This document shows, in pieces, positions 6,861 through 50,810 of a stretch of DNA of 60,132 bases. This DNA comes from an uncultured Acholeplasmataceae bacterium (GTDB lineage: Bacteria; Bacillota_I; Bacilli_A; Acholeplasmatales; Acholeplasmataceae), in NCBI GenBank assembly GCA_963540225.1, contig CAUTNH010000001.1:1-60132 (forward strand). Reading direction: 5' to 3'. The notes beneath the pieces were generated by a model. That model made no database searches and was not told the DNA's origin. It saw nothing but the letters and a program-made list of their open reading frames with translations. Position 1 is the stretch's first letter; each line of letters opens with the position of its first letter. The position numbers were made by a program, and so were the translations under genes.

Positions 6861-6892
6861 ATATTTTATTTAATAAAAATATAGCAATAAAC

Positions 6893-6920
6893 ATTATACT
6901 ATTTTTAGATTATTTGTCAA
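6893..6920 (-). promoter_or_regulatory. sigma-70-type promoter for tRNA-Gly
   Basis: Minus strand has TTGACA (6920..6915), a 16-bp spacer, then TATAAT (6898..6893). This is about 33 nt upstream of the tRNA 5' end. Confidence 0.6.
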
Positions 6921-6975
6921 ATTAAAACTATATTTTTTAAAATTACATCTTACTTTTATAAAACATTAAACTTTA

Positions 6976-6984
6976 TGCTATAAT
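6976..6984 (+). promoter_or_regulatory. extended -10 promoter for tRNA-Cys
   Basis: TGcTATAAT, with its end 10 nt before the tRNA 5' end. Confidence 0.55.
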
Positions 6985-6993
6985 TTATAAGAT

Positions 6994-7065
6994 GGTTCCG
7001 TAGCCAAGCTGGTAAGGCAGTGCTCTGCAAAAGCTCGATCATCGGTTCAAATCCGGTCGGAACCT
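6994..7065 (+). tRNA. tRNA-Cys (anticodon GCA), CCA not encoded
   Basis: GGTTCCG TA GCCAAGCTGGTAAGGC A GTGCT CTGCAAA AGCTC GATC ATCGG TTCAAAT CCGGT CGGAACC T. There is one U-U mismatch in the anticodon stem. Confidence 0.85.
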
Positions 7066-7080
7066 CATAAAAGTATTTTA

Positions 7081-7109: not shown

Positions 7110-7468
7110 TGGTGGAGATGGAGGGATTTGAACCCTCGTATGAAATAAATAATATATTAAAATCTACATACTTATTTTATTTTTTATCTAAGATATCAAA
7201 GAAAAATAAACAAAACTTAAAATATCCTATCCTATAAAATTCACTAAATTATCTAGGCATAATTTAGTATAACCTACAAATATCTTTTAACCAGCAAGTA
7301 GGTATACTAGTTAAAAGGTTTCACAAATTATTATGCGAAAGCTAATTGTTGTGCATTATTTGCACGATAAATTGGGTTTGCATTTAATTAAACCTCGAGT
7401 GTTTAACGTGACTACTCACGGTATGCATTTAGTATACGCTTTATCCCAGCGACTCCTAAATCATCCCC
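7110..7468 (-). ncRNA. ssrA: tmRNA (SsrA), ~359 nt
   Basis: The 5' end GGGGATGATTTAGGAG pairs with the 3' end GAGGGTTCAAATCCCTCCATCTCCACCA, forming a tRNA-Ala-like acceptor with a G3.U pair. The internal tag ORF is GCA AAC CCA ATT TAT CGT GCA AAT AAT GCA CAA CAA TTA GCT TTC GCA TAA TAA (7381..7334, with stops at 7333..7328). Confidence 0.9.
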
Positions 7469-11568: not shown

Positions 11569-12068
11569 TAGTTTATTAAATTGTTATCTTTTTTTAATTG
11601 TTCTTCTATAATTTTTAAAGGAACGTTAACTCTATTTTTTAAAATAACAAATAAATTTATACAAATTGTAATAATAGAAAGTATTGCCATTAGTGAACCT
11701 AGTATATAATATGTTAAAGACATATAAAAACTGCTTAACTTTAAATTACTATTCTTAAAAAGAAAGATAAATATTAAATAAATAAGAAATAATACAAGAT
11801 ATGTATATGTTATAATTTTATTTATATAGTCATATTTTTTTATATATTTTACCGATATATCCTTTTTATAAAATGTGCTAAAAGAAAATATTGCAACAAT
11901 TATTAATCCTATAAAACTTCCATATAATATTTTATATAAAAGACTATTTTCTCCCATTTTAGTAAATATAGAAAATATTGCAATCGTCAAAAAAAGAAAG
12001 TTATACATAATTATAACAATCATTGATTTTATACTAATATATTCTTTTAATTTCTTTTCATCCAACAT
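11568..12068 (-). CDS. hypothetical 4-TM membrane protein (paralog of 50115..50810)
   Basis: 166 aa. It shares the block IKK-D-INKIITY-YL with the 231-aa ORF at 50115..50810. TAATG overlap with the next gene. Confidence 0.7.
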   Translation of the reverse strand: MLDEKKLKEYISIKSMIVIIMYNFLFLTIAIFSIFTKMGENSLLYKILYGSFIGLIIVAIFSFSTFYKKDISVKYIKKYDYINKIITYTYLVLFLIYLIFIFLFKNSNLKLSSFYMSLTYYILGSLMAILSIITICINLFVILKNRVNVPLKIIEEQLKKDNNLIN

Positions 12069-25440: not shown

Positions 25441-25474
25441 AAAAAAGAACTAGAAAGTTGCCCTTTCTAGTTCT
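25441..25474 (-). terminator. terminator overlapping the end of hydF
   Basis: A 12-bp stem AGAACTAGAAAG / CTTTCTAGTTCT followed by TTTTTT on the minus strand. Confidence 0.75.
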
Positions 25475-26628
25475 CCTTTAAGATAGCTTATTATTATGCC
25501 ATAATTAGTTATTGGAATATTTTTACTTTTTGCTTTATTTATTCTATTTTCCATATTAAGTCTATCATTCATACATCCACCACAATGAATTATTAGGGAA
25601 AATTTTGATATATCATCTGGAATTGGACCGTTTGAAAATGTGTATTTAAAATCTATTCCAGTTTTATTTTTTATTAGTTCAGGAATTAAAACATTTCCAA
25701 TGTCTTCATGATTTTTAGTATGAACGCATGATTCAGCAATTAAAATTTCATCACCTTTTTTTAACTTACTAATAACCTTTGCACTTTCGTAAAAAAGTTT
25801 TATATCGCCTTTTTGTCTTGCAAAAAGTATTGAAAAACTTGTAAGTTTTTTATCCTTAGGAACTATATTAGCAACTTCTTTAAAAATCTTGCTATCTGTT
25901 ATTACTAAATCAGGATCATATTTTTTTATATTTTTGTTAAGATTAGAAAGAGAAGATATTATAGATGTAGTATTTTTATCACAAAGCGCTCTCAAGGTCT
26001 GAACCTGAGGTAAAATCAATCTTCCTTTGGGAGCTTCTGAATCAATAGGAATTACAAGAATGGCAGTTTTACCATCTTCTAAAATACCTTCTAAAAGATT
26101 TACCTCAGAATCATTTTTAAGATTATTTTTTATCTCATTAAATATCTTATCTTTAAAATATTCTTTATTGTTAATACTAAACTTTAAAATGTTAAAATCT
26201 AATTTATCATCTAGTAGATCTGATTTTGAAATTATAAAAATTACTTTTTTATTTTTTAAATAATCTCTATTTTTTATCTCATTTATAAAATTATTTAATT
26301 CATCATTATTTTTTATATTATTTTTTTTTATATCATCAAAGGAGATTAAATATAAAATAAGATGACTATTTAAAATATTATCTATAGTTTTTTTCACTCT
26401 TAAACTTCCAAGATAACTAATATCATCAATACCTGCTGTATCAATTAAATTAAATGCTCCAAAGCCTGCAATTTCAATTACTCTATTTACAGGATCTGTT
26501 GTTGTTCCTACTACATCAGATACTATTGATTTTTCAAAATTTATTAAACTGTTAAAAAGAGTGGACTTACCACTGTTTGCATTTCCAATTATTACAATAT
26601 TTTTTTTATTTATATCTTTTTTCATCAA
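25450..26628 (-). CDS. hydF: [FeFe]-hydrogenase H-cluster maturation GTPase HydF
   Basis: GNANSGKST P-loop and DTAG, with C-terminal CVH...HCGGC cluster ligands. Confidence 0.85.
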   Translation of the reverse strand: MMKKDINKKNIVIIGNANSGKSTLFNSLINFEKSIVSDVVGTTTDPVNRVIEIAGFGAFNLIDTAGIDDISYLGSLRVKKTIDNILNSHLILYLISFDDIKKNNIKNNDELNNFINEIKNRDYLKNKKVIFIISKSDLLDDKLDFNILKFSINNKEYFKDKIFNEIKNNLKNDSEVNLLEGILEDGKTAILVIPIDSEAPKGRLILPQVQTLRALCDKNTTSIISSLSNLNKNIKKYDPDLVITDSKIFKEVANIVPKDKKLTSFSILFARQKGDIKLFYESAKVISKLKKGDEILIAESCVHTKNHEDIGNVLIPELIKNKTGIDFKYTFSNGPIPDDISKFSLIIHCGGCMNDRLNMENRINKAKSKNIPITNYGIIISYLKGELERATF

Positions 26629-28028
26629 ATATATAAATCTCTTTTACCATTTTTTAAAAGTTCAATATTTTTAAAAACTTGTTTTTCAAGTTTAGGATTA
26701 TTAAAATTTTTTACAGTTTTTTTAATATATTCTTCCATTTTAATAATTAAATCTTTATCACCATAATCTATTGCATACTCCATTAGAGTAATTAGCGCAT
26801 TATGATTACACATATAATGAATTTTACTAGCCTTTGCAATTTCCATAAAATGCTCGCCGGTTCTACCGACACGATAGCATGCAGTGCAATAACTTGGAAT
26901 ATAATCATTATCTATTAAATCATTAATTACTTCCTTAGGAGATCTTTGATCAAGCTTTTCAAACTGATCTATTTTTTCTTCCTTTAGAGATTTTTCATAT
27001 CCACCAACACCAGTACAAGAGCCAGCAGATACTTGAGATACTCCATATTTTATTAACTCACTTCTCATAATTGCCGATTCTCTTGTTGATAAAATAAGAC
27101 CTGTAAAAGGAACAGCAAGTCTTATAATTGCTACTAGTTTTTTGAATTCATTATCTGATACAATATATGGAAAATCATCCATTTTTATACCCTCAGCAGG
27201 TCTTAATCTAGGAACTGATATTGTATGAAAGCCAACACCAAATTTTCTTTCAAGATGCTCATTATGCATCATTAGTGCAAGTACTTCGAATTTATAATTA
27301 CTTAATCCAAATAAAACACCAGCACCAACATCATCAATACCTGCTTCCATTGCTCTATCAAATGCAGTTAGATGATAGTTATAATCACCTTTAAGACAGT
27401 TTGGATGCATTTTGTTATATTGAAAGATATCATATGTTTCTTGAAATAGGATATATGTTCCTATTTCAGCATTTTTTAACTTAACATAATTTTCTGTTGT
27501 AGTTGCCGCAATATTTACGTTTATCCTTCTTATAACTCCTCTTTTATTATAAGTATCATATATTGCTCCTATTGCATCAAGAACATAATCTATTGGACAA
27601 TTTATAGGATCTTCACCTGCTTCAAGAGCAAGCCTTTTATGACCCATATCCTCTAGTATCATTACCTCATTTTTTATTTCCTCTAATGTAAGTTTTCTTC
27701 TTTCAAATTTATTTTTATGTTGATAACCGCAATAAAGGCAATTGTTAACGCAATAATCACTTATATAAAGTGGTGCAAATAAAACTACTCTATTTCCGTA
27801 AATATCTTCTTTTATCTTGCCAGCAATTTTAAAAAGTCTTTTTAACTGGTCTTTATCTTCTATTTCAAGCAGGGTTGCAATTTCTTTATGAGTTAAACCT
27901 TTTTTTACCTCTGCTTTATCTAAGACTTTATCAATATCTTCTTTTGAAACTTCTTTTGCATCTTTTATAAGATTATTTATATAATCATAATCAATATGCA
28001 TATTCTCATCAAATCTTTTTTTATTCAT
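26625..28028 (-). CDS. hydG: [FeFe]-hydrogenase maturase HydG (radical SAM); start re-called to ATG 28028
   Basis: CVNNCLYCGY radical-SAM motif and a C-terminal CTACYRVGRTGEHFM cluster motif. The track's MKGDK prefix is the translated SD (TTGAAAGGTGATAAA). Confidence 0.88.
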   Translation of the reverse strand: MNKKRFDENMHIDYDYINNLIKDAKEVSKEDIDKVLDKAEVKKGLTHKEIATLLEIEDKDQLKRLFKIAGKIKEDIYGNRVVLFAPLYISDYCVNNCLYCGYQHKNKFERRKLTLEEIKNEVMILEDMGHKRLALEAGEDPINCPIDYVLDAIGAIYDTYNKRGVIRRINVNIAATTTENYVKLKNAEIGTYILFQETYDIFQYNKMHPNCLKGDYNYHLTAFDRAMEAGIDDVGAGVLFGLSNYKFEVLALMMHNEHLERKFGVGFHTISVPRLRPAEGIKMDDFPYIVSDNEFKKLVAIIRLAVPFTGLILSTRESAIMRSELIKYGVSQVSAGSCTGVGGYEKSLKEEKIDQFEKLDQRSPKEVINDLIDNDYIPSYCTACYRVGRTGEHFMEIAKASKIHYMCNHNALITLMEYAIDYGDKDLIIKMEEYIKKTVKNFNNPKLEKQVFKNIELLKNGKRDLYI

Positions 28029-28039
28029 TTTATCACCTT

Positions 28040-29104
28040 TCAAATCAGATCTTCTTCTTTGTTAGATTTATAATCTCCTCGCATAAGGCAAGGAATATAG
28101 TTATTTTTTATTAGTAAATTTTTAAGATTATCTAAATTTTTACCATCTTCAGTTTTATCTATTTTTTTATTGTCATATAAATTATAGCACTTTGCAATAT
28201 CAGATGGTGTAATATTAGGCATTATCACATTACATCCCGCATTAAGGCCTTTTATTGTTCCCATTAAGTCAGCTGTTGCAAGAGCAGTTGTTGCAGGAAG
28301 TAAAACATTTGGCAAAAGAAGCCTTATTAAAGAAAGTAAATCAACGGTTAAATCAGTCGAACCTTTTTTGTAATCTTTTAACTTAGTATTACTACTCGGA
28401 ATAAAAGGTCCTATCCCAACCATTTCAGGATTTAACTTTTTTAAAAAAATTAAATCGTCTACATAATCTTTTAATTTTAAATTAAAAAGACCAACTATAA
28501 AACCTGCGCCAGTTTGATATTTTAATTTTTTTAAATTATATAAAGACTTAATTCTTTTTTTTGATGATTCGTTATGAAGAATCTTGTAAACTTTTTTATT
28601 TGATGTTTCATGGCGCAGTAAAAATCTATCAACGCCAGCATCTTTTAAATCTTTATAGTATGAATATGACTTTTCACCAATGGACATAGTTAACGCAATA
28701 TTTCCAAAATTAGCCTTTATTTTTTTTACAAGTTCAACCAAAGCATAATCTTCTTTTTTTTCCTCACCAGATTGTAAAACAAAAGATTTATATCCAAGAT
28801 TTATACCAAAAGATATAATATTAAATATCTCGTCATATGATAATTTATATCTTTTAATTTTGGAAAATTTATTTATGCCACAATAAGCACATTCTTTTAT
28901 ACAGTAGTTACCAAATTCAATTAAACCCCTTAAATATATTTTTCTACCATATATCGTATCGCAAATACTCCTTGCTTTATTATGTAAATATTTTCTTAAA
29001 TCATCATCTATGTTTTCTAAAATATAAAGTAGTCCTTTTTTAGAAAGACTATGTTTTTTTTCTAGTTTATCAATTAGTTTAACTACCTTTTCTTTACTAT
29101 TCAT
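28040..29104 (-). CDS. hydE: [FeFe]-hydrogenase maturase HydE (radical SAM)
   Basis: CIKECAYCGIN motif, BioB-like length, and a position adjacent to hydG and hydF. Confidence 0.85.
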   Translation of the reverse strand: MNSKEKVVKLIDKLEKKHSLSKKGLLYILENIDDDLRKYLHNKARSICDTIYGRKIYLRGLIEFGNYCIKECAYCGINKFSKIKRYKLSYDEIFNIISFGINLGYKSFVLQSGEEKKEDYALVELVKKIKANFGNIALTMSIGEKSYSYYKDLKDAGVDRFLLRHETSNKKVYKILHNESSKKRIKSLYNLKKLKYQTGAGFIVGLFNLKLKDYVDDLIFLKKLNPEMVGIGPFIPSSNTKLKDYKKGSTDLTVDLLSLIRLLLPNVLLPATTALATADLMGTIKGLNAGCNVIMPNITPSDIAKCYNLYDNKKIDKTEDGKNLDNLKNLLIKNNYIPCLMRGDYKSNKEEDLI

Positions 29105-33225: not shown

Positions 33226-36200
33226 TTATTTAACTGCGACGAGTTCTAAATTATCAAATACTGGATCGTTTAATACATCAAATTCAACAGTATTGTCATT
33301 TTTTAAAACCCATTTATTTGTATCATCTGGAAGAAGTGGAGCACCAGTAAGACCACCGTTTGGATCTGTATCTTTACCTTGATAATCGTTTAATGTTCCA
33401 CCACAGTATGCAAATCTTATCTCATATGGTTTTGGTTCTGGATTTGCTAAATCGGATAATCTATAAAGTTTAACTGTATATTTTGCTCTTTTAACAAATA
33501 CATAAGTTACAACCTCATTTTCATCATTTAATAAAACTTTTCTCTTAGGCTTTTCATTTCCAAATGGATTAGTATATTCACTATAACCTTTGCCAAGACC
33601 AAGTTCTGGGAAGACCTCAGTTTCTTTTCCGATTTCTATTTTCTTATATAAAATTTTATAATCAACATTATTTGCCTTAGCCTTTTCAATTATTTCATTA
33701 TCTGATAATGGATCACTACCGTTACTGTAAATAGGATCAATTGTATTATCACCTGGATCAGAGTATATAGTATAAACTTTTAAATTACCACGTTTTTTAA
33801 CAGTTGTAATATTAAATCTAAACTCGTCTGAACCATTTTTATAAATTGAGAAGACAAACTCTGATGGTCTAATTTCTTGGCCTTTATATAAGAATTTATC
33901 AACCTCGTTATTTGCTTCTATTTTTTCATAAAGTTTCTTTAACTCCACTGAGAAAGGATCAGTTCCTGCAGCCAATGTTGAAAATCCTTTTCTATCTGAA
34001 TAAATTCCTGTAACTTCAACTTGTTTTAAAGGATCATTTTCATCAAGAATAAATTTTGCTTTAATTTCTTTTCTTTTTATAGTAAGACGCAAGTTATATT
34101 GTGAACCATCTTCTTTAATTTTATCAGCAGAAATTGTTTGAAGTTTTTCACTATCATCAATTTCATAATCATCACTTAAATTTAAACTATCAAGTGTTTC
34201 TAGTTTATCAACTGAATCATAATCCCAGTTATACTCTTGATTTGCCGGTACAGTGATTGTTGAAAATTTTATTGTACTTCCGCTTTGATCGGTTGTGTCA
34301 AGCTGTTGAGCTGTGTTATCGTCTTCTGAAGTTTTTACATAATATGCATTTATTGTTGCTGTAATATTTCTAAATTTAGCCTCATATACAACCTCAGGAC
34401 GATATTCAGATGAATTTTGTCCATAATTCCAACCAACAATTTTTTGATCTATTTCATCATGTTTAACATCTATTCCATCAACATTCCAAATGCCAGCAAA
34501 TTTATATCCTGCCTTAATTGGTTCACCGATTTCATCTTTGTTAATATATTGACCATAAATATATTCTTTTTCCTTAAATAATGAGCCATCAGAGTTAAAG
34601 ATTGTTTTAACTGTTTTTCTCTTAAAATAAACTATAAAATATCCTTGAACATCATCTTCTGTTGGAGTAGATTTTAACTTGTTATCTGCTGCATCATCCA
34701 TTTCAAAGACATTTGGTCCTAGATTTTGTGGGAAGTTAGTAATCTGAGCTAAATTACGATAATTAGGGAAAATATTATTTATATCTTTTTCCTCACCTAA
34801 CTCGTAGTCTTTCTTATCAGAATAGACTACATTTTCAAATACATTAGCACCATTTGCTTGATTGTTTTCATCATAAAATACTCTTGTTAAAACAAATTTA
34901 CCGTCATTTCTATTTTGCCAGTTAGCAAACATTTCAAATTTAGTGTCGTTAGGATTTTGCTTGATAAGTTCATTAAAAGTATCGTTTTCTTTATAATCAG
35001 TTGAATTATAAAGATATGATTTAAAGAATTTATTTTTTAGACTTGGAATTTGAGAATGTGTTATTTTTTGATTGTAATAAAATTTTTGCTCATGTAAGAA
35101 CTCACTACCTGCTATATAATAGAAGTTTATAACTATTTGTTTAACTTTTGTTGTAAAAATAATCTCATCATTTCCAACTCTTTTAATTTTTAAATTTACA
35201 TCATCAATAGATTTATTAACAAGATATGATGTTTGTTCAGTATTGACCAAATTATCAATAAAATCAAAAGCTCTTTTATAGGTTTCATCAACATCATAAT
35301 ATCTTACATAAACAGATGTCATTCCTCTTGTCTCTTGTAAGTTGTAGTCAAAATAACTATCGTATCTTGTCATTTTGATTGGAACTTTTGAAAATCTAAT
35401 TTCTGCTACATTTCCAAATCTTCCAAAAGTCACATCATCTGCAATTCTTTCATCAGTCTGATTTTTAAAATAACCAATTTCATTTCCAAAATCAGATGGG
35501 AATGCTATATTATAATCTGTTTTGTAACTACTTAACTTATCAACTAAAATATCATCTTCTTTACCACGAAGATTCGGAAGATTATCAAACTTCATCTCAG
35601 AAAATATTTTATTAACCATACTGTCAAGTTCACTTTCTGATATAGTCGGGTTTTCTTTTCTCTTATCTTCTTTAATTTTAATCTTATAATCTAATAAATT
35701 AGAAACAACTACACTAATTGAAACATATCTTCCAGATCTTGGATGAAGCCTAACAATATAATTAGATCTATTTATATCATCTTTTTTATTAACAAATATA
35801 TCAAAACCTGGAATACTTGGTTTATCTGTTGAACCATTTACCTCTAAATTTCCTTCTGTAAGCCATTTATTAGCAAAATATTTATCAGGATCAGAAAATT
35901 GATATTTTTGAGGAAGTTGAAATTGTTGATATTTAGCATCGTTTTCACCGTTGCTATCAACTTCAACTGTTTGGTCAATATATTCATTAGAACCATCATT
36001 TGCAAGCTCTTCTTTGTTCTCGTTTAAGAATTTCAAAATTACTTTTTTTCTTCTAAATCTAGGTTCTATTGTAACATTATAAAGTTTATTTTCTGCTTGA
36101 TCATATCCACCAGGAATTTTTTCTGTTCTAATATTTTCAAAATCGCTTGTAAATACTTCATTTGTTCCAGCAAGAACAAAATCAACTAGCTCATAAAACT

Positions 36201-37398
36201 CTCTTGCCTTTTCAGTATTTGTTGCAACTCTTCTAATTACTTTTTTAGTTTTAGGATCAATTGTTTCTTCAAACTCAGTTGATGGATAAATAAGTTTTTC
36301 TTTTAACTTAGCTAAAAAAGTACTATCTCCTGTGCTTGATATATATTTTGTATAACCACTTGAATATTCTGTCCCAAGAATTGATACTTTAATATTTTTA
36401 CCACCAACTCTAGCATTCGAAGCATATGCTCTTATTTCGTTATTTCTTCCTTGCCAATCATAAAGATCTTTTTTATCTTTAATCTGAGTTGCTCTTGTTG
36501 AATCAAAATACCATTCTTCCATATCTTTTCTTAAAGCATCAGTTAAATCTTGTGTTGAAATTATATTTTTAGATAATATTCTTTGTTTAAATACAGATTC
36601 AAAACCTCTACCTTTTTCAACAAAATCTTTATAATCTGAAAACTTCATATAAGTTGATTGATTTGTTGTCTCATTAGCAGCCTCACTTGCATTAGGAGAA
36701 TAAATTGAGACAATATTTTTAAAATTTATCTCAAGTGGTAAAATTGCATATTTTCTTTCTTTAACAAAGATAACCTTAACTCTATAATCCGTATTAGCCT
36801 CATTAAGACTACGAGAGTTATAAATTGCTTTTAAATCAAGTTCTTTAACATTAGCATAACCTTTACCGCTTTGTTTTAAAAACTGAAACTCAACACTTTG
36901 TTTAGGATTATAATAATATTCATTAAGTGTTGTAAGTTTTTTCTCGAAATCATCAGGCGATAAAACAAGTTTACCATCATTTCTCTTATCTGGTGTTTTT
37001 GCTTTTACACTATTTTTTGTATCAAGTTGCATTTTCTTTAAATCAATGGGAGTAACCTTAGTTAAACCAATATATGCGCCTGCTGATATACCAACCACTA
37101 AAATTGTAATTAAAATAATAACAATAATTGCAAGAATCGAAAACTTCTTAGCTTTTTGTTCTCTGGTTTTTTCCAAAACCATAATATCTTGTCTTTGAGT
37201 CTCATATACAACAAGAGCACCAGCACCATCTTGATTAGATGAAATTGGAGCAATATCAGTAGATAAGTCTTGCTCAAGATTTTTAAAATTTTCAGGATCG
37301 AATTCTTCTGCTATAACTTCTTCATAAACTTCATTTTTATCGTCTATGTCATCGCCTATTCCATTTAGTCCTTGCTCAAACTTTTCTTGCATTTTCAA
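33226..37398 (-). CDS. giant (1390 aa) single-pass membrane-anchored surface protein, function unknown
   Basis: An acidic ~85-aa N-terminus, one TM helix (FSILAIIVIILITILVVGISAGAYIGL), then ~1280 extracellular residues. Several segments resemble Listeria-Bacteroides (Flg_new) repeats, e.g. GEPIKAGYKFAGIWNVDG and ..TKFEMFANW. The start is TTG 37398 or ATG 37392. Confidence 0.8.
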   Translation of the reverse strand: MKMQEKFEQGLNGIGDDIDDKNEVYEEVIAEEFDPENFKNLEQDLSTDIAPISSNQDGAGALVVYETQRQDIMVLEKTREQKAKKFSILAIIVIILITILVVGISAGAYIGLTKVTPIDLKKMQLDTKNSVKAKTPDKRNDGKLVLSPDDFEKKLTTLNEYYYNPKQSVEFQFLKQSGKGYANVKELDLKAIYNSRSLNEANTDYRVKVIFVKERKYAILPLEINFKNIVSIYSPNASEAANETTNQSTYMKFSDYKDFVEKGRGFESVFKQRILSKNIISTQDLTDALRKDMEEWYFDSTRATQIKDKKDLYDWQGRNNEIRAYASNARVGGKNIKVSILGTEYSSGYTKYISSTGDSTFLAKLKEKLIYPSTEFEETIDPKTKKVIRRVATNTEKAREFYELVDFVLAGTNEVFTSDFENIRTEKIPGGYDQAENKLYNVTIEPRFRRKKVILKFLNENKEELANDGSNEYIDQTVEVDSNGENDAKYQQFQLPQKYQFSDPDKYFANKWLTEGNLEVNGSTDKPSIPGFDIFVNKKDDINRSNYIVRLHPRSGRYVSISVVVSNLLDYKIKIKEDKRKENPTISESELDSMVNKIFSEMKFDNLPNLRGKEDDILVDKLSSYKTDYNIAFPSDFGNEIGYFKNQTDERIADDVTFGRFGNVAEIRFSKVPIKMTRYDSYFDYNLQETRGMTSVYVRYYDVDETYKRAFDFIDNLVNTEQTSYLVNKSIDDVNLKIKRVGNDEIIFTTKVKQIVINFYYIAGSEFLHEQKFYYNQKITHSQIPSLKNKFFKSYLYNSTDYKENDTFNELIKQNPNDTKFEMFANWQNRNDGKFVLTRVFYDENNQANGANVFENVVYSDKKDYELGEEKDINNIFPNYRNLAQITNFPQNLGPNVFEMDDAADNKLKSTPTEDDVQGYFIVYFKRKTVKTIFNSDGSLFKEKEYIYGQYINKDEIGEPIKAGYKFAGIWNVDGIDVKHDEIDQKIVGWNYGQNSSEYRPEVVYEAKFRNITATINAYYVKTSEDDNTAQQLDTTDQSGSTIKFSTITVPANQEYNWDYDSVDKLETLDSLNLSDDYEIDDSEKLQTISADKIKEDGSQYNLRLTIKRKEIKAKFILDENDPLKQVEVTGIYSDRKGFSTLAAGTDPFSVELKKLYEKIEANNEVDKFLYKGQEIRPSEFVFSIYKNGSDEFRFNITTVKKRGNLKVYTIYSDPGDNTIDPIYSNGSDPLSDNEIIEKAKANNVDYKILYKKIEIGKETEVFPELGLGKGYSEYTNPFGNEKPKRKVLLNDENEVVTYVFVKRAKYTVKLYRLSDLANPEPKPYEIRFAYCGGTLNDYQGKDTDPNGGLTGAPLLPDDTNKWVLKNDNTVEFDVLNDPVFDNLELVAVK

Positions 37399-40885: not shown

Positions 40886-41503
40886 ATGAAGTGTAAAAAA
40901 ATGTTTATTTTTGTAATATTAATATCTTTTTTTCTATTTTTAACAAATTTTTTAATTGTTAAAGCTTTTTGGCTTGGAATAAACAATCCGACTAATGAAA
41001 AATCTAATAATCAAATTGAAATAGGTAGTGCAAAAAATATTAAAACTAGAATTGGCTTATCTAATTTAGAAAATAATCAAAACAAAATACTGTTGCCTAA
41101 AAACACAGAAAATATTCAAAAATTTGAATATAAAAATGATAAAGAGTATGTAAATGAAATTACATTTAAAAAAAGAATAATTTGGAAAGAGAACACTACC
41201 CCTTATATAGTTAATGATGAATATAAAAAAATATTAAAAGTAAGTGTTAATACTTATTTAAAAAATATTCCACAATCTCCCAAAATACCACTTGATGAAG
41301 TTTATAAATTATTTAAAGTTGAAATAACAGGAAATAATCAAGAAATTAAATTAAATGACCCAAATGGTGTAGTATGTGAGTTTAAATTTTATTATAATTC
41401 ATATAATCAAGATGAAGAATATGATAAAAATAAAAAATTATATGATATTTTATATCTTAATGATATTATAATAGAAATTGTTTTTGAGGTAGTTTATGCT
41501 TAA
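40886..41503 (+). CDS. hypothetical exported or membrane-anchored protein
   Basis: 205 aa. An N-terminal hydrophobic segment ends in ..LIVKAFWLGINN... The rest is K/N/E-rich. Its end overlaps the next ORF by 8 nt. Confidence 0.65.
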   Translation: MKCKKMFIFVILISFFLFLTNFLIVKAFWLGINNPTNEKSNNQIEIGSAKNIKTRIGLSNLENNQNKILLPKNTENIQKFEYKNDKEYVNEITFKKRIIWKENTTPYIVNDEYKKILKVSVNTYLKNIPQSPKIPLDEVYKLFKVEITGNNQEIKLNDPNGVVCEFKFYYNSYNQDEEYDKNKKLYDILYLNDIIIEIVFEVVYA

Positions 41504-42317
41504 TAAGAAATTATTTTATAAATCTGCAATTTATATAATTATCTCAACTATATTATTTGTCTTAACAATTTCACTAAGCGTAGGTGCCTTTTTTGTAGGT
41601 GATATATTAAAGCCTAAAAATATAGAAGATAAAGATAGTTTAGGTGTTTTAAACTATCCTTATTTTAAATATAAAAAATATGCCACAAATACACCTTATA
41701 GTAAAGATGATATTATCCTAACTAGTGAAAATGAATTATATCTTGTAAACAGAGATATCCCAGCAGATGATCCTTGGCATGATTACAAAAAATTATATAC
41801 AGGAAATTTAAATAAGCCATCTGAAAGAAAAAAAATACGCTATTATAAAATTGGTAATGGCTTTTATTCAAGAAATATTTACTATGGTGGAGATTATATA
41901 TATGATAAAAATAATAAAAAACTTTATTCTGCATCTGATAGATATGTGCCTCATATAGCTGGAAATGAAGTTATGAATACTTATGATTTTCCAGGAACAA
42001 GTCCTAATTGGGTTGTTAAACCAATTGATGGTATATCAATTTGGAAAAGATATAATATCTATCAAAAGTATGATATCGTATATTATAGTAATAACTACTT
42101 TTATCTTTTTGGAAAAGATTTTTCAGTTAATAAAACTCCCTCAATCCTTCCTACTAGTATATGGAAAAGGATATTTGATTTTGATGATAACAAAGTATAT
42201 AATAAATATGAAATAATTAAAGTATATGATAAATTTTACCAAGCAAGATTTGATGGTGTAGTAGGTGCTGCTTATAATAGTACTGCGCTATGGCAAGAAA
42301 TATATCCCAGAATATAA
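41496..42317 (+). CDS. exported or anchored protein with four CBM5/12-like (chitin-binding-type) aromatic repeats
   Basis: 273 aa with an N-terminal TM segment (IYIIISTILFVLTISLSVGAFFVG). Four repeats follow the pattern Y-x-x-x-D/E-I-[IV]...Y......W, e.g. YNKYEIIKVYDKFYQARFDGVVGAAYNSTALWQEI. Confidence 0.55.
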   Translation: MLNKKLFYKSAIYIIISTILFVLTISLSVGAFFVGDILKPKNIEDKDSLGVLNYPYFKYKKYATNTPYSKDDIILTSENELYLVNRDIPADDPWHDYKKLYTGNLNKPSERKKIRYYKIGNGFYSRNIYYGGDYIYDKNNKKLYSASDRYVPHIAGNEVMNTYDFPGTSPNWVVKPIDGISIWKRYNIYQKYDIVYYSNNYFYLFGKDFSVNKTPSILPTSIWKRIFDFDDNKVYNKYEIIKVYDKFYQARFDGVVGAAYNSTALWQEIYPRI

Positions 42318-42473: not shown

Positions 42474-43097
42474 TTAACTTAGATAATAACTTTTTATTTT
42501 AACTAATTCATTTTTTTTATTCATTGGAGCATTTTCAATAATTTTATCTATTCTTTTTATCATATAATCTTTATATTTTAGATATAATTTATCATCTTTT
42601 AAGTATAAGCCTTTATATAATTGGCATTCATCAAAATTCATTTTCCCAGTTTTACATTCAATTATTTCATAATACTTATTATTTTCAAATACTAGTTTTT
42701 CAAAGGTTATTTTAAAATTATTACATAATAAATATCTTCTTAAAATATCAGTTTTTAAATTACTTGATAAGATATATGTCTTATTTATTGGAGCAGTTTT
42801 TAATATTGAAATAATAGTATAAGCACCAAGACCTGAAATTATACAAGTATCAAAATCAATTTCTAAATTATTAAAATTATCTGCTTTTATAAATTCTACA
42901 TTATAATTTTTTAAATTTTTTTTAGCATTTTCTAGTGGTCCTATTTTATTATCAATAGCATAGGCTTTTTCTACTTTATAATTTTTAAAGCACTCTAAAA
43001 GACATAAACCGTGATCGCAACCAAAATCAACTAATTTTTTGGACTTGCTTGCTAGTTTAGAAATTTCTAATAATCTTAAACTTAATTTACTTATCAT
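42474..43097 (-). CDS. trmK: tRNA (adenine22-N1)-methyltransferase TrmK-like (start re-called to ATG 43097)
   Basis: MISKLSLRLLEISKL.. and DFGCDHG motifs. The track's longer start would overlap sdaA by 44 nt. Confidence 0.65.
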   Translation of the reverse strand: MISKLSLRLLEISKLASKSKKLVDFGCDHGLCLLECFKNYKVEKAYAIDNKIGPLENAKKNLKNYNVEFIKADNFNNLEIDFDTCIISGLGAYTIISILKTAPINKTYILSSNLKTDILRRYLLCNNFKITFEKLVFENNKYYEIIECKTGKMNFDECQLYKGLYLKDDKLYLKYKDYMIKRIDKIIENAPMNKKNELVKIKSYYLS

Positions 43098-44280
43098 AAA
43101 ACTTAGCAAGACCTCCATCTGATGTTTCACGGTATTTTTTCTTTAAGTCTAGACCTGTTTGATACATAGTTTTAACTACCGTATCAAATGAAACTTTTCT
43201 TGTATTAGGTAAAAAGAATGCTAAAGAGCAAGAGTTTATAGCTCTTAAAGAAGCAACAGCATTTCTTTCAATGCATGGTATTTGAACATATCCCATAATA
43301 GGATCACATGTAAGACCGAGTTGATGTTCCATAGCAATTTCAGCGGCATATTCGACTTGTTCAATTGATAAATTAAAAAGAGTTGCGTGCGCTGCTGCAG
43401 CCATTGCAGTTGCACTTCCTATTTCTGCCTGACATCCTGCAACAGCACCAGATATTGATGCGTTTTCTTTAATTATATTTCCGACTAATCCTGCAACAGC
43501 CAAAGCATTTATTATTCTATTTTTTTTTATAAAACTATATTTATTTTCCATATAATATAAAACAGCGGGTAAAACTCCACAAGCACCACATGTAGGAGCG
43601 GTTACTATTATGCCACCAGATGCATTTTCCTCAGATACAGCATAGGCATATGCACTTATAAGTCTTGTTTCAGCAACTTCAGGTGCCTCATTTATTTTTT
43701 TATTTTCATAAAGAAGTTTTGCTTTTCTTTTAGTTTTTAATTTTCCAGGTAAAATGCCATCTTTTACAAGACCACGTTTAATTGCATCTTTCATAGTATT
43801 ATATACATTTTCTAGATAGTCTTTAATATCTTTATTTTCATATTTATAAACATAATCATATAATGTAATATTATTTTCTATACAGTATTTTTTTATATCT
43901 GAAAAATATCTTAAAGGATAAATATCTTTTTTATCATCTGAAATATTAAGATCTCCTCCGCCGATACTTATAAAATCTTTTTTTATTACCTCATCACTGT
44001 TTGTATTTTTGGCAATGAATGCAAAAAAATTAGGATGAAGATTTTTATCAATTTTTCTTATAATATTAACCTTTAATGGCTTAAATATACTTTTTATAAC
44101 AGAATATGTAAGATGCCCATTACCAGTTTTGTTAAGAGAATTATAAAAAATAGCATCTATTATATAGTTATTTTTAGTATTTAAATATTTTTTAAAAATA
44201 TCAGCAGCCCTTGAAGGAGCCATTGTATGAGAGCTTGAAGGACCATATCCAATTTTAAATATTTTTTTTATTGTTTCCAT
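43087..44280 (-). CDS. sdaA: L-serine dehydratase, iron-sulfur-dependent, single chain
   Basis: FKIGYGPSSSHTMAP at the N-terminus and the ..GGIIVTAPTCGACGVLPAV.. cluster region. Confidence 0.88.
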   Translation of the reverse strand: METIKKIFKIGYGPSSSHTMAPSRAADIFKKYLNTKNNYIIDAIFYNSLNKTGNGHLTYSVIKSIFKPLKVNIIRKIDKNLHPNFFAFIAKNTNSDEVIKKDFISIGGGDLNISDDKKDIYPLRYFSDIKKYCIENNITLYDYVYKYENKDIKDYLENVYNTMKDAIKRGLVKDGILPGKLKTKRKAKLLYENKKINEAPEVAETRLISAYAYAVSEENASGGIIVTAPTCGACGVLPAVLYYMENKYSFIKKNRIINALAVAGLVGNIIKENASISGAVAGCQAEIGSATAMAAAAHATLFNLSIEQVEYAAEIAMEHQLGLTCDPIMGYVQIPCIERNAVASLRAINSCSLAFFLPNTRKVSFDTVVKTMYQTGLDLKKKYRETSDGGLAKFYDK

Positions 44281-44296: not shown

Positions 44297-44366
44297 TATT
44301 TAAAAGCAATATACTTTATATATATTTAAAATATGTTAAGATTATTAAAGGAAGGAATGTGATTTT

Positions 44367-45203
44367 ATGGCTAAAAAAGAGGCTAAAGAAGAAAAGATGT
44401 CAAAGACAGAATACTGTTGTGATGATGATTGCTGCTGCGGTTGCAATGAATCTTATTGTTCTTGCGGTTGTGGTTGCTCTTGCGGTTGCGATGAATGTCG
44501 CGAATGCGATGGAGTTTGCACATGCCCATGCGAGAATTGTACATGTGAACATGCAACACCACTAATTGGAGATAAAGCACCTGAATTTCACGCAAATACA
44601 ACTCAAGGTGTAATTCATTTTCCAAATGATTATAAGGGTAAATGGGTGATTTTATTTTCTCATCCTGCTGATTTTACACCGGTTTGCACAACTGAATTTA
44701 TGACATTTGCAAGCAGATACCAAGAATTTAAAAAACAAAATTGTGAACTTGTAGGTCTTTCAATTGATTCGATTTTTTCACATCTTGCTTGGCTTGACAA
44801 GATTAAATCTTTACAATATAAAGAAATTAAAAATGTAGATGTTTTATTTCCACTAATTGATGATATTGATAAAAATGTTGCCTATAGATATGGTATGATA
44901 CATCCAGCATCTAGCACAACACAAGCAATTAGAGCGGTATTTTTCATTGGACCTGATGGAGTTATTAAAACAATTCTATACTATCCTTCAAGTGTTGGAA
45001 GAAACTTTGATGAACTTTTAAGATTATTAACTGCTCTTCAAACAGTTGAAAAAGAAAAATGTGCAACACCTGCCGATTGGAAAAAAGGCGAAGATGTTAT
45101 TGTTCCTCCTGCAACAGATATGAAAACATTAAAAGAAAGAAAAGAACCAAAAGATGGTATGGTATGTCAAGATTGGTTCTTATGCTTTAAAAAAACTAAA
45201 TAA
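44367..45203 (+). CDS. peroxiredoxin (Prx6/1-Cys-type core) with a Cys-rich N-terminal extension
   Basis: The core is PLIGDKAPEF..KGKWVILFSHPADFTPVCTTEF..., preceded by 19 Cys within residues 17-60. The start could be Met1 (44367) or Met11 (44397). Confidence 0.9.
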   Translation: MAKKEAKEEKMSKTEYCCDDDCCCGCNESYCSCGCGCSCGCDECRECDGVCTCPCENCTCEHATPLIGDKAPEFHANTTQGVIHFPNDYKGKWVILFSHPADFTPVCTTEFMTFASRYQEFKKQNCELVGLSIDSIFSHLAWLDKIKSLQYKEIKNVDVLFPLIDDIDKNVAYRYGMIHPASSTTQAIRAVFFIGPDGVIKTILYYPSSVGRNFDELLRLLTALQTVEKEKCATPADWKKGEDVIVPPATDMKTLKERKEPKDGMVCQDWFLCFKKTK

Positions 45204-45245: not shown

Positions 45246-45270
45246 CCCTAGCCTTCAAAAAAGGTTAGGG
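45246..45270 (+). terminator. terminator after the peroxiredoxin gene
   Basis: CCCTAGCC / GGTTAGGG stem followed by ATTTT. Confidence 0.55.
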
Positions 45271-46782: not shown

Positions 46783-48471
46783 TTAGTAATTTTTTAATGC
46801 TTTATAACTTACTTTACAAGCTCCATAGTGTTTTTTTCCATCTTTATCAGTAAACTTATACCCATAAACAAAAGTGTACTCTAAGCCCGAACTATTAGAA
46901 TCCTTAAATGGATTATTTTCATATACATCAATTTTAGTAGTAGCATTATTTGTTGCAATAAGTTCTCCTGTTTTATAATATAAATAAACATTATTCTCAT
47001 CTTTAAATTGTAAAAATAAAGATATTTGCCCTCTACTTAAAAATTCTTTACCATTTACTTTAACTAATGCTTCCTTAGGATTATTAGTTAATATATAATA
47101 GTTCATCATATCATCATGGAAAACATTTAAATTTTTATCAATACTATAACTATCTTTTGCAATATAGTAGTTTCTTGCAATATATTTATCTTCTACTATA
47201 TCGTAAATATCAACTTTTCTATTACTAGAGCTAATAGTAAGACCATTACTTATTACAAAATATCTACTATTATGAACTGAAGCAATTTTATTTTTTTTAA
47301 TCGCTCTTATAAATTTTTTATTATTATCAACTAAACTATAAAAATTACTACTTTCTAAAAGATATCTGTTATCATTTATTTTTTCAATTGATAAGATATC
47401 TTCAACTTCAGATATTTTTGTAAGATAGTTATCAATAGCAACTTTTTCTCTTTTTAAAAGTTTTCTAGTCTCAGGGTCAATAAATCTAATATCTGCGATA
47501 TTTTTAATTTTACTATTTTTATATGATATGTAGTTTCCTTTTTCATCTTTTTGATTTTTTTCGATGTGTTCAACTACAAACTGTAAGTTTATTTTTTTAA
47601 GTGTTTTTTTACTAAAATCATATAAATATGTTTCATATAAATAAGTTTTATTTCCATAAAAATAGTAATTTTTTAAATCATTTTGATTATATGTATAATC
47701 TATTTGTTGACTACATGAGAATAAAATATTGTTATTTTCAAGAATAAAATTTTTACTAACATAATCTGGCAAGGTGAATACATCATAAATTTTTCCATCT
47801 TTATAAACTGTCGCTACACCACCACCAGAGTTTACTTTTATTTCTTTATTTTTATAATCTAAAATTTCTTTTTCAAACTTTTCAAGATCTTTTATTATAT
47901 TTCCTTTATAAAAGTAGTATTTTTTAAAATCATAATTATCTTGATTGCTAACTTTAACTTCATCAATACTGCTATCTTTAAAAGTATTAGCATTATGATT
48001 CATTTTAATCTCGTTTTTTGATGTAGAAGATGTTAAAGTCGCATTTTCTACTTTTAAAAGTTCTTTCCCATCATATCTACTTATAAAAGTGAATGTATCA
48101 TCTTTTTTAAGTAAAATATAATTTCGTGTAGTAAGTATGACATTAGTACCTTCGCCATCAAATTCAAAAGACTTACTAGTTAATCTATTTATAAATTGAT
48201 ATTTTTTACTTGTAATATCATATCTATATAAAAGCTCACTATCTGATACAAAATTCTCATCTTTAACTATTTCATTAGCGCTTATTTTTTCAAAAAAGTC
48301 TTTATATTTTGTAAAAGTATCAAGAAAGCTAAATTTATTTTTTGTAAGTAATTCATTTCTTACTTTTTCAAGTGTTTTATTATCTAGTTTATTGTTATCT
48401 TTTTTACAGCCAACAAAAACAAAAACAAGTAAAGCAGATACGAATATAAAAAGTATTTTTTTAAACTTCAT
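46783..48471 (-). CDS. lipoprotein, unknown function (paralog of 48483..50118)
   Basis: Signal peptide with lipobox MKFKKILFIFVSALLVFVFVGC. Shares blocks with the neighbour, e.g. IYDVFTLP...FILENNNILFS vs LYDIIKLP...YILENKNLLIKS. Confidence 0.8.
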   Translation of the reverse strand: MKFKKILFIFVSALLVFVFVGCKKDNNKLDNKTLEKVRNELLTKNKFSFLDTFTKYKDFFEKISANEIVKDENFVSDSELLYRYDITSKKYQFINRLTSKSFEFDGEGTNVILTTRNYILLKKDDTFTFISRYDGKELLKVENATLTSSTSKNEIKMNHNANTFKDSSIDEVKVSNQDNYDFKKYYFYKGNIIKDLEKFEKEILDYKNKEIKVNSGGGVATVYKDGKIYDVFTLPDYVSKNFILENNNILFSCSQQIDYTYNQNDLKNYYFYGNKTYLYETYLYDFSKKTLKKINLQFVVEHIEKNQKDEKGNYISYKNSKIKNIADIRFIDPETRKLLKREKVAIDNYLTKISEVEDILSIEKINDNRYLLESSNFYSLVDNNKKFIRAIKKNKIASVHNSRYFVISNGLTISSSNRKVDIYDIVEDKYIARNYYIAKDSYSIDKNLNVFHDDMMNYYILTNNPKEALVKVNGKEFLSRGQISLFLQFKDENNVYLYYKTGELIATNNATTKIDVYENNPFKDSNSSGLEYTFVYGYKFTDKDGKKHYGACKVSYKALKNY

Positions 48472-48482
48472 AATCTTCCTCC

Positions 48483-50118
48483 TTAGTAAACAAGATCAAA
48501 ACTAGTATAAGTCATACTAAATGTGTAAAACTCTTTTACCACACTATCATCTAAATTTTTATATGTTATTTCAATTAAATAATATCTTGTCTTTGTATTA
48601 TTTTTATTTTCAACATCAATTTCTTTCTTAATTTCTAAATTGAAATCTTTTGTTTTAGTAATATCATATTTTGCTATTTCATCACCAAATAAATTATAAA
48701 CAGATATAATATCACCATTTTTACAAAGTGCTACAAAATTATAACCAGAAGTAGTCTCATATATATTATCAAGTTTTCCTTCAATCTTTTTTAATTTACC
48801 ATCAAAAAAGAAAAAATACTCACCTTTATCATTTTTTAATAAGGCAGAATTATCTGTCTTTTTAATAACATAATAATTATTTAAAATATACTTATTTTCT
48901 TCTAAATCATAAATATTAACTAAATTAAACTCCAAATCATAGCTTGGAACAATTTCATTTGAAACTTTTACAATGGCATATTTTTTATTAAGAAATCCGA
49001 CAATTCTTCTACTTTCAAAAAATTTAGAATTTTTGCCAGTTGTTCTTATATCAAAATTATGATATTTTATATAATAGCCTGTATTTGAAAAATAAACTAA
49101 ATTATAATTTGGGGAAAATTGTTTTTTGATATTTCCAAAATTATCAATAGATGAATATTTGGCAATTGATAATTTTTTTGTTTTTGGATCAATTTCATTA
49201 TATAAGGCAAAGTTTGAAATATTATCATTATATTTTTTTATGCCTGTTTTAATATCTTTAGTATTTGGATTAACAGCATTTATTATGTAATTTTTATTAA
49301 GTTGTATTAACTCTTTTATTTTATAATTATAGATATATTGTCTTACTCTTACCCTTGTAACTTTACCACTATTTACATAGTAGTAATCATAATTTAAATC
49401 AGTTGCTTTTTGACCTTCTCCTAATTCAACTACTTCTTCTGATTTAATAAGTAAATTTTTATTTTCTAAAATATATGTTCTAATATATCCATTAGAATTA
49501 GGAAGTTTTATAATATCATATAACTCATTATTTTCATAATATTCTATATCATTAGTTGATGAAACACTAACATATGGTTCAGTTTTATCTAATGGCTTTT
49601 CAACTAGTTTAAAATCTTTAAAATAATATTCTTTTTTTATATAACTTGAGTTTTTTTCAACCATTATCATTTGATTATTGAATGTATTATTATATGTAAT
49701 AGTATTACCATCTATAACTTCTTTTCTTTTTAATTCTAATATTTTCTCACCAGTTAAAAGTGAAAAAATTAAATCAGCGTCAACCTCGCTATCATAAATA
49801 CGCAGATACTGTCCTTTTAAAACAATATCACTATGTTTAGTCTTATCATATTTAAAAATCTTTAAGATCGATTATTTTTCCACTTGCCTCAACTAAAAAT
49901 AATTGATCATCGCTTTTATAAAGTCGGTAATGAGAATTTTGAGATTGAAATTCTCCCTTTAAATTTTCTATTTTAGTAGGTTTAGTAGTACTAATTTTAT
50001 TTTTAAATGCCTCATTTAAATAATTTTTATTTGCTATATCTTTATTTATATTCCCTTTGCATGCAAATAAACTTCCAAGTGTAATAATAGATAATAATAA
50101 AAATAATATTTTTTTCAT
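48483..50118 (-). pseudogene. lipoprotein gene split by a 1-nt frameshift at a homopolymer (88-aa signal/lipobox ORF plus 395-aa ORF)
   Basis: The ORF 49852..50118 has a lipobox (LGSLFAC) and stops at TAA inside GATTTTTAAATAT. The downstream ORF's frame is open from 49871, giving 67 stop-free codons with no start codon before the track ATG at 49670. Removing one T from the T5 run (A5 at 49854..49858 on the plus strand) fuses both into ~540 aa, matching the 562-aa paralog. Confidence 0.7.
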
Positions 50119-50810
50119 TTTTTATCTTCTTCCTCTTTATTTTTTTCATCTTTTATATCATCATTTTTTTCAACAACTTCAACTGCATCTTGAATGTCTT
50201 CAGATTTAAGTTCTCCGATTGTACTTTCAAAATCACTTTTAGCCTCTTGCTCTTTCATAATCTCTTCTGATTTTATTTTAGTATCTTTTTTAATGCATAA
50301 AATAGTATCGTAGATAAAAAGTGATATTGCAAGTAGAAAAAGTAGTACTCCTGATAAATACTGACCTATTTGAAATTTAAGAACTGATTTTTTAAAACCT
50401 GTATAATCATTTGTAAATACGCCATTCTTATCAAAGAATATTTGCAACTCTTTTTTACTAAGCATAACAAATGCAATAAATGCTATAAGCGGTATAAGAT
50501 AGATATATGTAATAATTTTATTTATAAAAAGATCTCTTTTTTTAATTTGAACAATATTCGTATTTTTATATACTCTAATTAAAACAAAAAGAACAATTAT
50601 TGCAACAATTACAACAGATAACATTACCCATTTATATACATCGGCCATTTTTTTACTTGTTGTAAGATAAAAATACCCTGAAAGTATTGCTAAAAATCCT
50701 AGCAAGGCAGAAAAAAGATGATATCCTGCAATCGCAAAAACATTTCTTTTTTCAAGTTTTACCTCTTCATCTAAATTAAGTTTACTTTTTTTATTTTCAT
50801 TATTTTCCAT
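50115..50810 (-). CDS. hypothetical 4-TM membrane protein with an acidic C-terminal tail (paralog of 11568..12068)
   Basis: 231 aa with ..VQIKKRDLFINKIITYIYLIPLIAF... ATGA overlap with the lipoprotein gene. Confidence 0.75.
   Translation of the reverse strand: MENNENKKSKLNLDEEVKLEKRNVFAIAGYHLFSALLGFLAILSGYFYLTTSKKMADVYKWVMLSVVIVAIIVLFVLIRVYKNTNIVQIKKRDLFINKIITYIYLIPLIAFIAFVMLSKKELQIFFDKNGVFTNDYTGFKKSVLKFQIGQYLSGVLLFLLAISLFIYDTILCIKKDTKIKSEEIMKEQEAKSDFESTIGELKSEDIQDAVEVVEKNDDIKDEKNKEEEDKK

Follow-up and report, generated by a model that had tools for sequence, protein, structure and literature searches.

A peroxiredoxin with a metallothionein-like, cysteine-rich N-terminal tail in an uncultured Acholeplasmataceae bacterium

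What is a block of 19 cysteines doing in front of a bacterial peroxiredoxin (Prx)? The question is raised by one gene in a 60,132-nucleotide stretch of DNA from an uncultured Acholeplasmataceae bacterium (contig CAUTNH010000001.1 of assembly GCA_963540225.1), the whole of which is called the window below. Translation of the open reading frame (ORF), together with Pfam and NCBIfam matches, delimits a complete coding sequence at 44367..45203 (+ strand; 278 aa and a stop codon) for a Prx with a Cys-rich N-terminal tail. An earlier, sequence-only reading of this DNA had pointed to 19 Cys within residues 17-60 and to their direct fusion to a Prx core; the translation and a composition count confirmed the former, and the latter proved to be a genuine, obligatory N-terminal fusion.

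The block itself (residues 17-60; 44415..44546, + strand), CCDDDCCCGCNESYCSCGCGCSCGCDECRECDGVCTCPCENCTC, is metallothionein-like in composition: 19 of its 44 residues (43%) are Cys, arranged in 3 CC, 9 CxC and 3 CxxC patterns, with CCC also represented. Among the other residues are 9 Asp/Glu and 5 Gly, together with one Tyr and one Val as the sole aromatic and the sole aliphatic residue, respectively. As Cys accounts for 1.0% of the residues in the window's long ORFs, the binomial probability of such a block is approximately 1.6e-26, and no second comparable Cys-rich stretch was found in any real ORF of the window. The block is preceded by a Lys/Glu-rich, hydrophilic leader without signal-peptide character (residues 1-16, MAKKEAKEEKMSKTEY; 44367..44414, + strand). 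The structure prediction that the sequence-only reading had proposed was carried out with AlphaFold2; residues 1-60 were returned as disordered (predicted local distance difference test score, pLDDT, below 50), and the Prx core was modelled confidently.

In-frame ATG, GTG or TTG codons are present only at positions 1, 11, 94 and 112, so the Cys block cannot be skipped by an alternative start while keeping the Prx fold, as had been argued from the sequence at the outset. The use of Met1 as the start is supported by the ribosome-binding site read in the sequence 5' of it (AAGGAAGGAA; 44348..44357, + strand), an equivalent of which, GAAAGGAA, lies at a comparable distance 5' of the ATG in four related loci (L012, L006, L007 and L009). 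The MAKK... start is kept in relatives, and in the sister species Met11 is replaced by Val, which again indicates that Met1 is the start. Three overlapping ORFs (44359-44565, + strand; 44383-44625 and 44400-44552, both - strand) were considered and rejected: they arise as a by-product of the TGC/GGT repeats, and only the Prx frame fits the synonymous pattern. The spurious ORFs over the Cys block are 50-80 aa long, one of them hydrophobic and Ala/Val-rich, and may mislead gene callers.

At least 8 contigs encode the identical 278-aa protein, and the five places listed come from five different ENA assemblies, which excludes the assembly artefact that the sequence-only reading had wished to see checked. 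A syntenic orthologue of 87% identity, in the same setting of TrmK, L-serine dehydratase and Prx genes, occurs both on a Logan contig and in the GTDB genome of an uncultured Acholeplasmataceae bacterium, which represent a sister species. In a codon comparison of the window gene with this orthologue, the ratio of non-synonymous to synonymous substitution rates (dN/dS) was 0.12 for the tail, an approximate value given the shortness of the tail and a dS (~1.0) close to saturation, and 0.075 for the core. Seventeen Cys columns are kept between the two proteins, 9 of them with switches between TGT and TGC. Five within-species variants were also compared: all are 278 aa long, the only changes in the block are E46K or G34S, and Cys is never altered. 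Taken together, the low dN/dS, the Cys columns kept through synonymous switches and the recurrence across assemblies indicate that the tail is a translated and constrained protein segment, under purifying selection, and not an artefact.

The DNA of the block retains marks of how it may have grown. Two direct repeats quoted in the sequence-only reading were found where it had placed them, and both belong to a longer internal repeat of 35 nt (44417-44451 and 44462-44496, + strand; 77% identity, spacing of 45 nt or 15 codons); a repeat search also detected 4.8 copies of the hexamer TTGCGG at 44462-44490 (+ strand). Growth by internal duplication, as previously suggested, is thus a reasonable origin, as is slippage, and the tail appears to have expanded by in-frame duplication or slippage of Cys-Gly and Cys-Asp codons around a Cys motif next to the core (CxCxCxxCxC, described below). 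Length variation by phase-variable change of the hexamer number was considered and is unsupported, all five within-species variants (5/5) being of 278 aa. The block had also been noticed as a local GC-rich island, and its GC content (46-47.5%, versus 26.6% for the window) is indeed high; the rise is an effect of codon composition, resulting from the TGY, GGN and GAY codons, and an origin from foreign DNA was rejected on this ground.

To what kind of enzyme is the tail attached? The core was recognised as a Prx6-type Prx; the tail (residues 1-64/66), searched by itself along the lines proposed earlier, matched no family. The core comprises an AhpC-TSA thioredoxin-fold domain (residues 67-202; 44565..44972, + strand; Pfam PF00578, E = 5.8e-34) and a 1-cysPrx_C domain (residues 223-258; 45033..45140, + strand; PF10417, E = 1.4e-11, 44.5 bits versus a cut-off of 21.1). 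The three core motifs listed by the sequence-only reading, PLIGDKAPEF, HPADFTPVCTTEF and VCQDWFLC, were all found. The second is the peroxidatic motif PxxxTxxC, of which P100, T104 and C107 are invariant in an alignment of 32 family members (A1); the codon of the peroxidatic Cys107 lies at 44685-44687 (+ strand), and the residue aligns with C50 of the Aeropyrum pernix enzyme ApTPx. The third holds the C-terminal pair C267/C273 (45165..45185, + strand), which in alignments to the PDB entries 2cv4, 3a5w and 5ovq matches C207/C213 of ApTPx, VCQDWFLC standing against RCLDWWFC (2cv4/3a5w) and ECADWYIC (5ovq). In the family alignment C273 is invariant and C267 at least 90% conserved. In a related protein, P0004 (L008, 5001-5843), the equivalent of C267 is lost (..EQYLDWFLC) and that of C273 kept, suggesting that the C-terminal pair is not obligatory in the clade. 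Another Cys of the core is Cys232 (codon 45060-45062; motif K-C-A-T-P-A-D-W). Cys predominates at this position in this bacterial Prx family, to judge from the consensus of the same alignment, and the solved enzymes of archaeal and Aquifex type have Val or Ala there.

The NCBIfam model NF009668 (PRK13189) matched residues 59-277 with 313 bits (cut-off 211), and the core scored under the cut-offs of the sibling models PRK13190, PRK13191 and PRK13599. Its nearest relatives in the PDB are 5ovq (232 bits, an end-to-end alignment of the core over residues 64-277), 6q5v, 2cv4/3a5w and 3w6g. The core can thus be assigned to the Prx6-subfamily "3-Cys" (PRK13189-type) peroxiredoxins, as a predicted cytoplasmic enzyme with an intact catalytic core, from an Acholeplasmataceae-like gut anaerobe. 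Of the initial label, "Prx6/1-Cys-type", the subfamily stands; a strict 1-Cys enzyme does not, given the alignment of the C-terminal pair with C207/C213 of ApTPx and the score above the PRK13189 cut-off. As C267 and C273 match the resolving pair of the 3-Cys thioredoxin peroxidases, the core would be independent of the tail for resolution. It is 50-60% identical to solved ring-forming enzymes, from which we infer a decameric or dodecameric ring and peroxidase activity with a thioredoxin-type reductant.

To establish how widespread such tails are, the tail and the full-length protein were compared with public sequences. A phmmer search with residues 1-66 against 1.84 billion representative proteins gave no matches, a weak negative in view of the HMMER composition filter. 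The tail had no Pfam or NCBIfam match at E <= 1 and nothing better than E = 5 in the PDB, and homology to a described metallothionein family was not found in Pfam, NCBIfam, the PDB or the representative proteins. When the full-length protein was used for an unbiased search, 115 of the best 120 homologues proved to be 216-241 aa long, with short leads free of Cys and no Cys-rich tail. The impression that the tail is unusual for its family was therefore correct; that it is unique was not, because sister lineages, unrelated bacteria and an archaeon possess Cys or Cys/His tails.

The five closest homologue clusters all have Cys- or Cys/His-rich tails, with 20 Cys (P0001), 15 Cys and 7 His over a stretch of 64 residues that contains HCHEHHHECEC (P0004), 10 Cys (P0003), 9 Cys with GHGRG/DGHGHG runs (P0002) and 5 Cys (P0045); they are found on contigs of 27-34% GC, two of them (P0001 and P0002) with the synteny of the window. 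Further afield, P0189 and P0181 (on a 46%-GC contig) have 11 Cys in 31-32 residues and P0249 has 9 Cys. A minimal, 5-Cys tail, MSTEERKCECGCENCDCNRL, belongs to P0241 (grouped with P0121), from a 65%-GC contig, and a protein annotated as belonging to a Candidatus Diapherotrites archaeon (P0123) carries MAECECKECNCNKM. Several further Prx of the same type have tails with one CC or CCC. Across the family the Cys- or Cys/His-rich tails are sporadic in occurrence and hold 4-20 Cys, and among homologues with the same core tail length ranges from 14 to 71 residues.

Two additional profiles were used. One (A2), built from the tail and the first 45 residues of the core, retrieved mostly truncated Prx fragments, few with Cys tails; the other (A3), built from tails with a 10-residue anchor, gave five matches and added P0249. 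The P0249 contig (L017, JGI Ga0136175_10041422) holds many short ORFs, with an ABC transporter and the Prx in pieces, and this frameshift-ridden look suggests that the 66-aa P0249 is an N-terminal piece of a Cys-tailed Prx. A scan of Joint Genome Institute (JGI) metagenomes with A3 yielded 600 pattern matches of which none was confirmed, tblastn probably being unable to score the low-complexity tail.

In a crude neighbour-joining tree built on 80 residues from the start of the core, the Cys-tailed groups fell in separate parts of the family, which suggests that such tails were gained repeatedly, or that they are ancient and were later lost. One part of the tail recurs at a fixed place. Alignment of ten tails (A3) revealed a proximal motif, CxCxCxxCxC (CTCPCENCTC, residues 51-60, in the window protein; 44517..44546, + strand), which is present in most of them and ends 3-6 residues before PLIG; its CxCxxCxC part is found in the window protein, P0001, P0002, P0004, P0241 and P0123. 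On the N-terminal side of this motif, tail length and Cys positions vary freely between lineages. To judge from these comparisons, the architecture is rare but recurrent within one Prx family, and most extreme in the Acholeplasmataceae-like lineage of the window.

What might such a tail do? The explanation we favour, to which we would give a little less than an even chance, is that it is a metal-thiolate module of the metallothionein-like, Cu/Zn type, the tails of a Prx ring plausibly meeting in its pore. Soft metal ions would be bound by the tail in thiolate clusters of the Cu(I) or Zn(II) type, and in sister lineages His would assist. In ring-forming Prx the N-termini would face the central pore, where some 190-230 thiolates from ten to twelve tails would thus make up a dense metal/thiolate sink. 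The peroxidase to which they are joined would keep these thiolates from being oxidised by peroxide and from losing their metal; in the opposite sense, an overload of peroxide could gate the release of metal. For an anaerobe dependent on Fe-S enzymes, the sequestration of thiophilic metals would be a plausible gain.

Four features argue, indirectly, for metal binding: the metallothionein-type composition and kinds of motif; the enrichment of His beside Cys in P0004 and P0002, both of them sister tails, which fits metal ligands and not a thiol relay; the proximal motif, fixed in position across phyla (it extends to a Diapherotrites archaeon and to a bacterium of 65% GC) like a set of ligands; and the fact that the core already has its own resolving cysteines. 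Two published observations bear on the pore. In the cryo-electron microscopy structure of a Cys-tailed Prx from Entamoeba, an unexplained density is seen at the centre of the decamer, possibly residues 1-23 (PMC13532219), and rings and tubes of N-terminally His-tagged Prx trap Ni-coated particles inside (PMC8023583).

Several points weigh against this explanation. The metallothionein assignment derives from composition, the tail being without detectable metallothionein homology. The number and positions of the distal Cys are poorly conserved between lineages, which would also fit a compositional role such as a thiol buffer, and the estimate of constraint on the tail is approximate for the reasons given above. 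The presumed pore location is extrapolated from Prx1-type rings. The gene neighbourhood gave no clue to function: the window has housekeeping genes only, with no thioredoxin or thioredoxin reductase gene, metal pump, regulator or metal-homeostasis gene among them. Near the homologues the metal-linked genes are two only: a ferritin-family gene (L009, 2940-3458), two genes from the Cys-tailed Prx P0003, and a FUR-family (PerR/Fur/Zur-like) regulator, which in L016 (5485-6732) stands on the same strand as the P0241 Prx gene, directly upstream of it. A broader proposal, which we regard as doubtful, is that Cys-tailed Prx rings are recurrent, unrecognised natural Prx-metallothionein fusions of separate evolutionary origin in Entamoeba, in archaea and in anaerobic bacteria, their tails filling the pore as a peroxidase-guarded (or peroxide-gated) Cu/Zn-thiolate store with CxCxCxxCxC as the nucleating metal site.

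The main alternative to a metal-thiolate module, unlikely in our estimate, is that the tail cysteines form a thiol reservoir or relay, acting as a sacrificial or recyclable reductant which resolves the C107 sulfenic acid or absorbs oxidants, in an organism that probably lacks glutathione, like Entamoeba. Neither Entamoeba nor the mollicutes are known to have glutathione. Such a role would be in keeping with the very high thiol density of the tail, with a distal part that keeps its composition and not its positions across lineages, with a thiol peroxidase as the fusion partner, and with the convergent Cys-rich N-terminus on the Prx of Entamoeba, itself a gut anaerobe (PMC5493030, PMC13532219). 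However, a resolving pair conserved family-wide, C267/C273, is already available in the core; the His enrichment of the P0004 and P0002 tails has no role in a thiol relay; the positionally fixed CxCxCxxCxC resembles a ligand set more than a buffer; and tails located in the pore would be distant from the active sites on the ring face.

An Fe or Fe-S site, on the tail as a whole or on the proximal 5-Cys motif, could serve for one-electron entry or as a sensor of O2 or peroxide; we consider this improbable. The host does appear to be an anaerobe rich in Fe-S enzymes. As the sequence-only reading had noted, [FeFe]-hydrogenase maturases are encoded, by HydE/F/G-type genes in a row at 25450-29101 (- strand): HydF at 25450-26625, a HydG-like gene (radical SAM and BATS domains) at 26625-28040 and a HydE-like gene (radical SAM) at 28040-29101. 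These maturases confirm a predicted anaerobic, H2-producing lifestyle. Next to the Prx gene and divergent from it lies a gene for a single-chain L-serine dehydratase (SDH_beta and SDH_alpha domains; 43087-44280, - strand), and members of this family are oxygen-labile [4Fe-4S] enzymes. The CxxCxxCxxxC spacing at residues 41-51 and the ferritin and FUR-family genes close to two homologues point in the same direction. Against this, shuffling the block reproduced the spacing in 63% of cases, most sister tails do not have it, and no Fer4 or other Fe-S family was matched in Pfam or NCBIfam at E <= 1. The ferredoxin-type motif at residues 41-51, which is followed by T and not P, was consequently dismissed as a chance occurrence. 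A density of CC, CCC and CxC such as that seen here is typical of metal-thiolate clusters and not of Fe-S sites, and the chemistry of Prx is a two-electron thiol-disulfide exchange.

An equally poor candidate, in our judgement, is an assembly switch without storage function, whereby disulfides or metal bridges between tails would lock or stack the rings and convert the protein from a peroxidase into chaperone or high-molecular-weight forms and back. N-terminal tags and metals do drive the stacking of Prx rings (PMC8023583), and in the Entamoeba Prx the adjacent subunit is touched by the N-terminal segment that follows the Cys-rich stretch (PMC13532219); but 19 Cys far exceed the needs of cross-linking, the same core is found with tails of very different length (14-71 residues), and most family members, to judge from solved decamers and dodecamers, assemble without a tail. 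A non-functional, low-complexity expansion by replication slippage, or an error of annotation or assembly, would accommodate the hexamer array and the 35-nt repeat, the predicted disorder and the restriction of tail homologues to Prx, but is very improbable and largely refuted by the purifying selection (dN/dS of 0.12, nine synonymous Cys-codon switches), the identical sequence in five independent assemblies, the constant length of the five variants, the independent Cys tails of distant taxa and the lack of an alternative start.

The surroundings of the gene were also inspected. A promoter-like site (TTTAAA, 16 nt, TATATT; 44299..44326, + strand), identified by a consensus scan only and weak evidence in a genome of 27% GC, lies within the 86-bp spacer that separates the Prx gene from the divergent L-serine dehydratase gene; downstream, a sequence scan located a hairpin resembling an intrinsic terminator and followed by a T-run (45246..45270, + strand). 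With these two putative signals on its flanks, the Prx gene appears to be monocistronic. The order TrmK-SdaA-Prx is kept in two sister lineages (L006/L012 and L007). Elsewhere in the window, the largest gene is a 1389-aa ORF with a TTG start and no Pfam match at E <= 1e-5 (33226-37398, - strand), and medium-sized ORFs without a Pfam family occur at 40886-42317 (+ strand) and, on the - strand, at 46783-48471, 48483-49670, 50115-50810 and 10087-12068; the one at 46783-48471 begins with MKFKKILFIFVSALLVFVFVGC, which resembles a lipoprotein signal and includes a lipobox Cys. A tmRNA gene (7110-7468, - strand), with the tag peptide ANPIYRANNAQQLAFA, is flanked by tRNA-Gly(GCC) and tRNA-Cys(GCA) (6786-7066).

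In public annotation the Cys-tailed proteins are plain "peroxiredoxins", even though Prx are among the best-studied antioxidant enzymes. Should the metal-thiolate explanation be correct, they would constitute a natural bacterial fusion that couples peroxide removal to metal buffering and a new, homology-independent type of bacterial metallothionein, of which few are known; it would also explain the Cys-rich N-terminus of the virulence-associated Prx of Entamoeba, and a self-assembling ring with a thiolate-lined pore would be of interest for bionanotechnology. Should the tail instead be a thiol relay, it would show how anaerobes without glutathione feed Prx with reducing power.

How does the protein compare with known systems? 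Its core is like those of the archaeal and Aquifex-type 3-Cys Prx6 enzymes (ApTPx, 2cv4/3a5w; Pyrococcus horikoshii, 3w6g; 5ovq; 6q5v), with which it shares PxxxTxxC, the 1-cysPrx_C domain and the CxDWxxC pair. Unlike the window protein, these solved enzymes begin 3-5 residues before the PLIG strand and none of them is Cys-tailed.

The tail, for its part, is like the metallothioneins (fungal Cu(I)-thioneins of the Neurospora type, bacterial SmtA/BmtA and MymT) in its high Cys content, its CxC, CC and CxxC motifs, its Gly/Ser/Asp/Asn spacers and its few aromatic or hydrophobic residues, and also in its predicted disorder, as apo-metallothioneins are disordered. A resemblance to the Neurospora Cu-metallothionein in particular is presumed and is a lead only. 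Metallothioneins are small free proteins, whereas the block is joined to an enzyme of 24 kDa, and no internal start separates the two. It agrees with that class in composition and departs from it in homology and in not being a small free protein; the tail would therefore be metallothionein-like at most.

A fusion of related design has been described in Runella aurantiaca, where TrxA/TrxMt is a chimera of thioredoxin and metallothionein whose recombinant form bound heavy metals and kept reductase activity (PMC13578184). It is similar to the window protein in that a redox protein of thioredoxin fold is joined to a Cys-rich metal-binding module, and differs in that its metallothionein part is C-terminal, homologous to SmtA and of 15.7% Cys. 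The paper puts the identity of the thioredoxin part to enterobacterial TrxA at 96%, and that of the metallothionein part to Synechococcus SmtA at 98% (PMC13578184). This 2026 report reads as if a laboratory or cloning-vector fusion had contaminated the assembly, suggesting that it is a weak natural precedent. A full-text literature search for Prx with Cys-rich or metallothionein-like extensions returned no description of a bacterial or archaeal Prx with such a tail.

The closest counterpart is eukaryotic: the 29-kDa cysteine-rich antigen Eh29 of Entamoeba histolytica (P19476), likewise a Prx of a gut anaerobe and long known for its short Cys-rich N-terminal extension, the likeness of the tails being one of composition only. 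The two cores are of different kinds. That of Eh29 is of the typical 2-Cys Prx1/AhpC type and that of the window protein of the Prx6 type: typical 2-Cys Prx structures scored 107-125 bits against the window core, versus 232 bits for 5ovq, and the AhpC model TIGR03137 gave it 104 bits, well under the cut-off of 272, which places it outside the 2-Cys Prx1/AhpC group. The tails differ too, that of Eh29 being of ~25 residues and K/E-rich, with what we take to be about 9 Cys, and that of the window protein having its 19 Cys in 44 residues in a G/D/S-rich context. The fragments of Eh29 that are printed in PMC5493030 show 7 Cys; residues 4-28, NQQKECCKK..QEKECCKECCCPRI, are rich in Lys, Glu and Cys and contain CC and CCC motifs (PMC5493030). 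The protein forms a decameric ring with an unassigned central density (PMC13532219). The resemblance between the two tails is most likely convergent. As far as can be judged from sequence comparison, the Cys-tailed Prx of the window represents a real, selected and unannotated domain architecture, to which Eh29 is the nearest architectural precedent.

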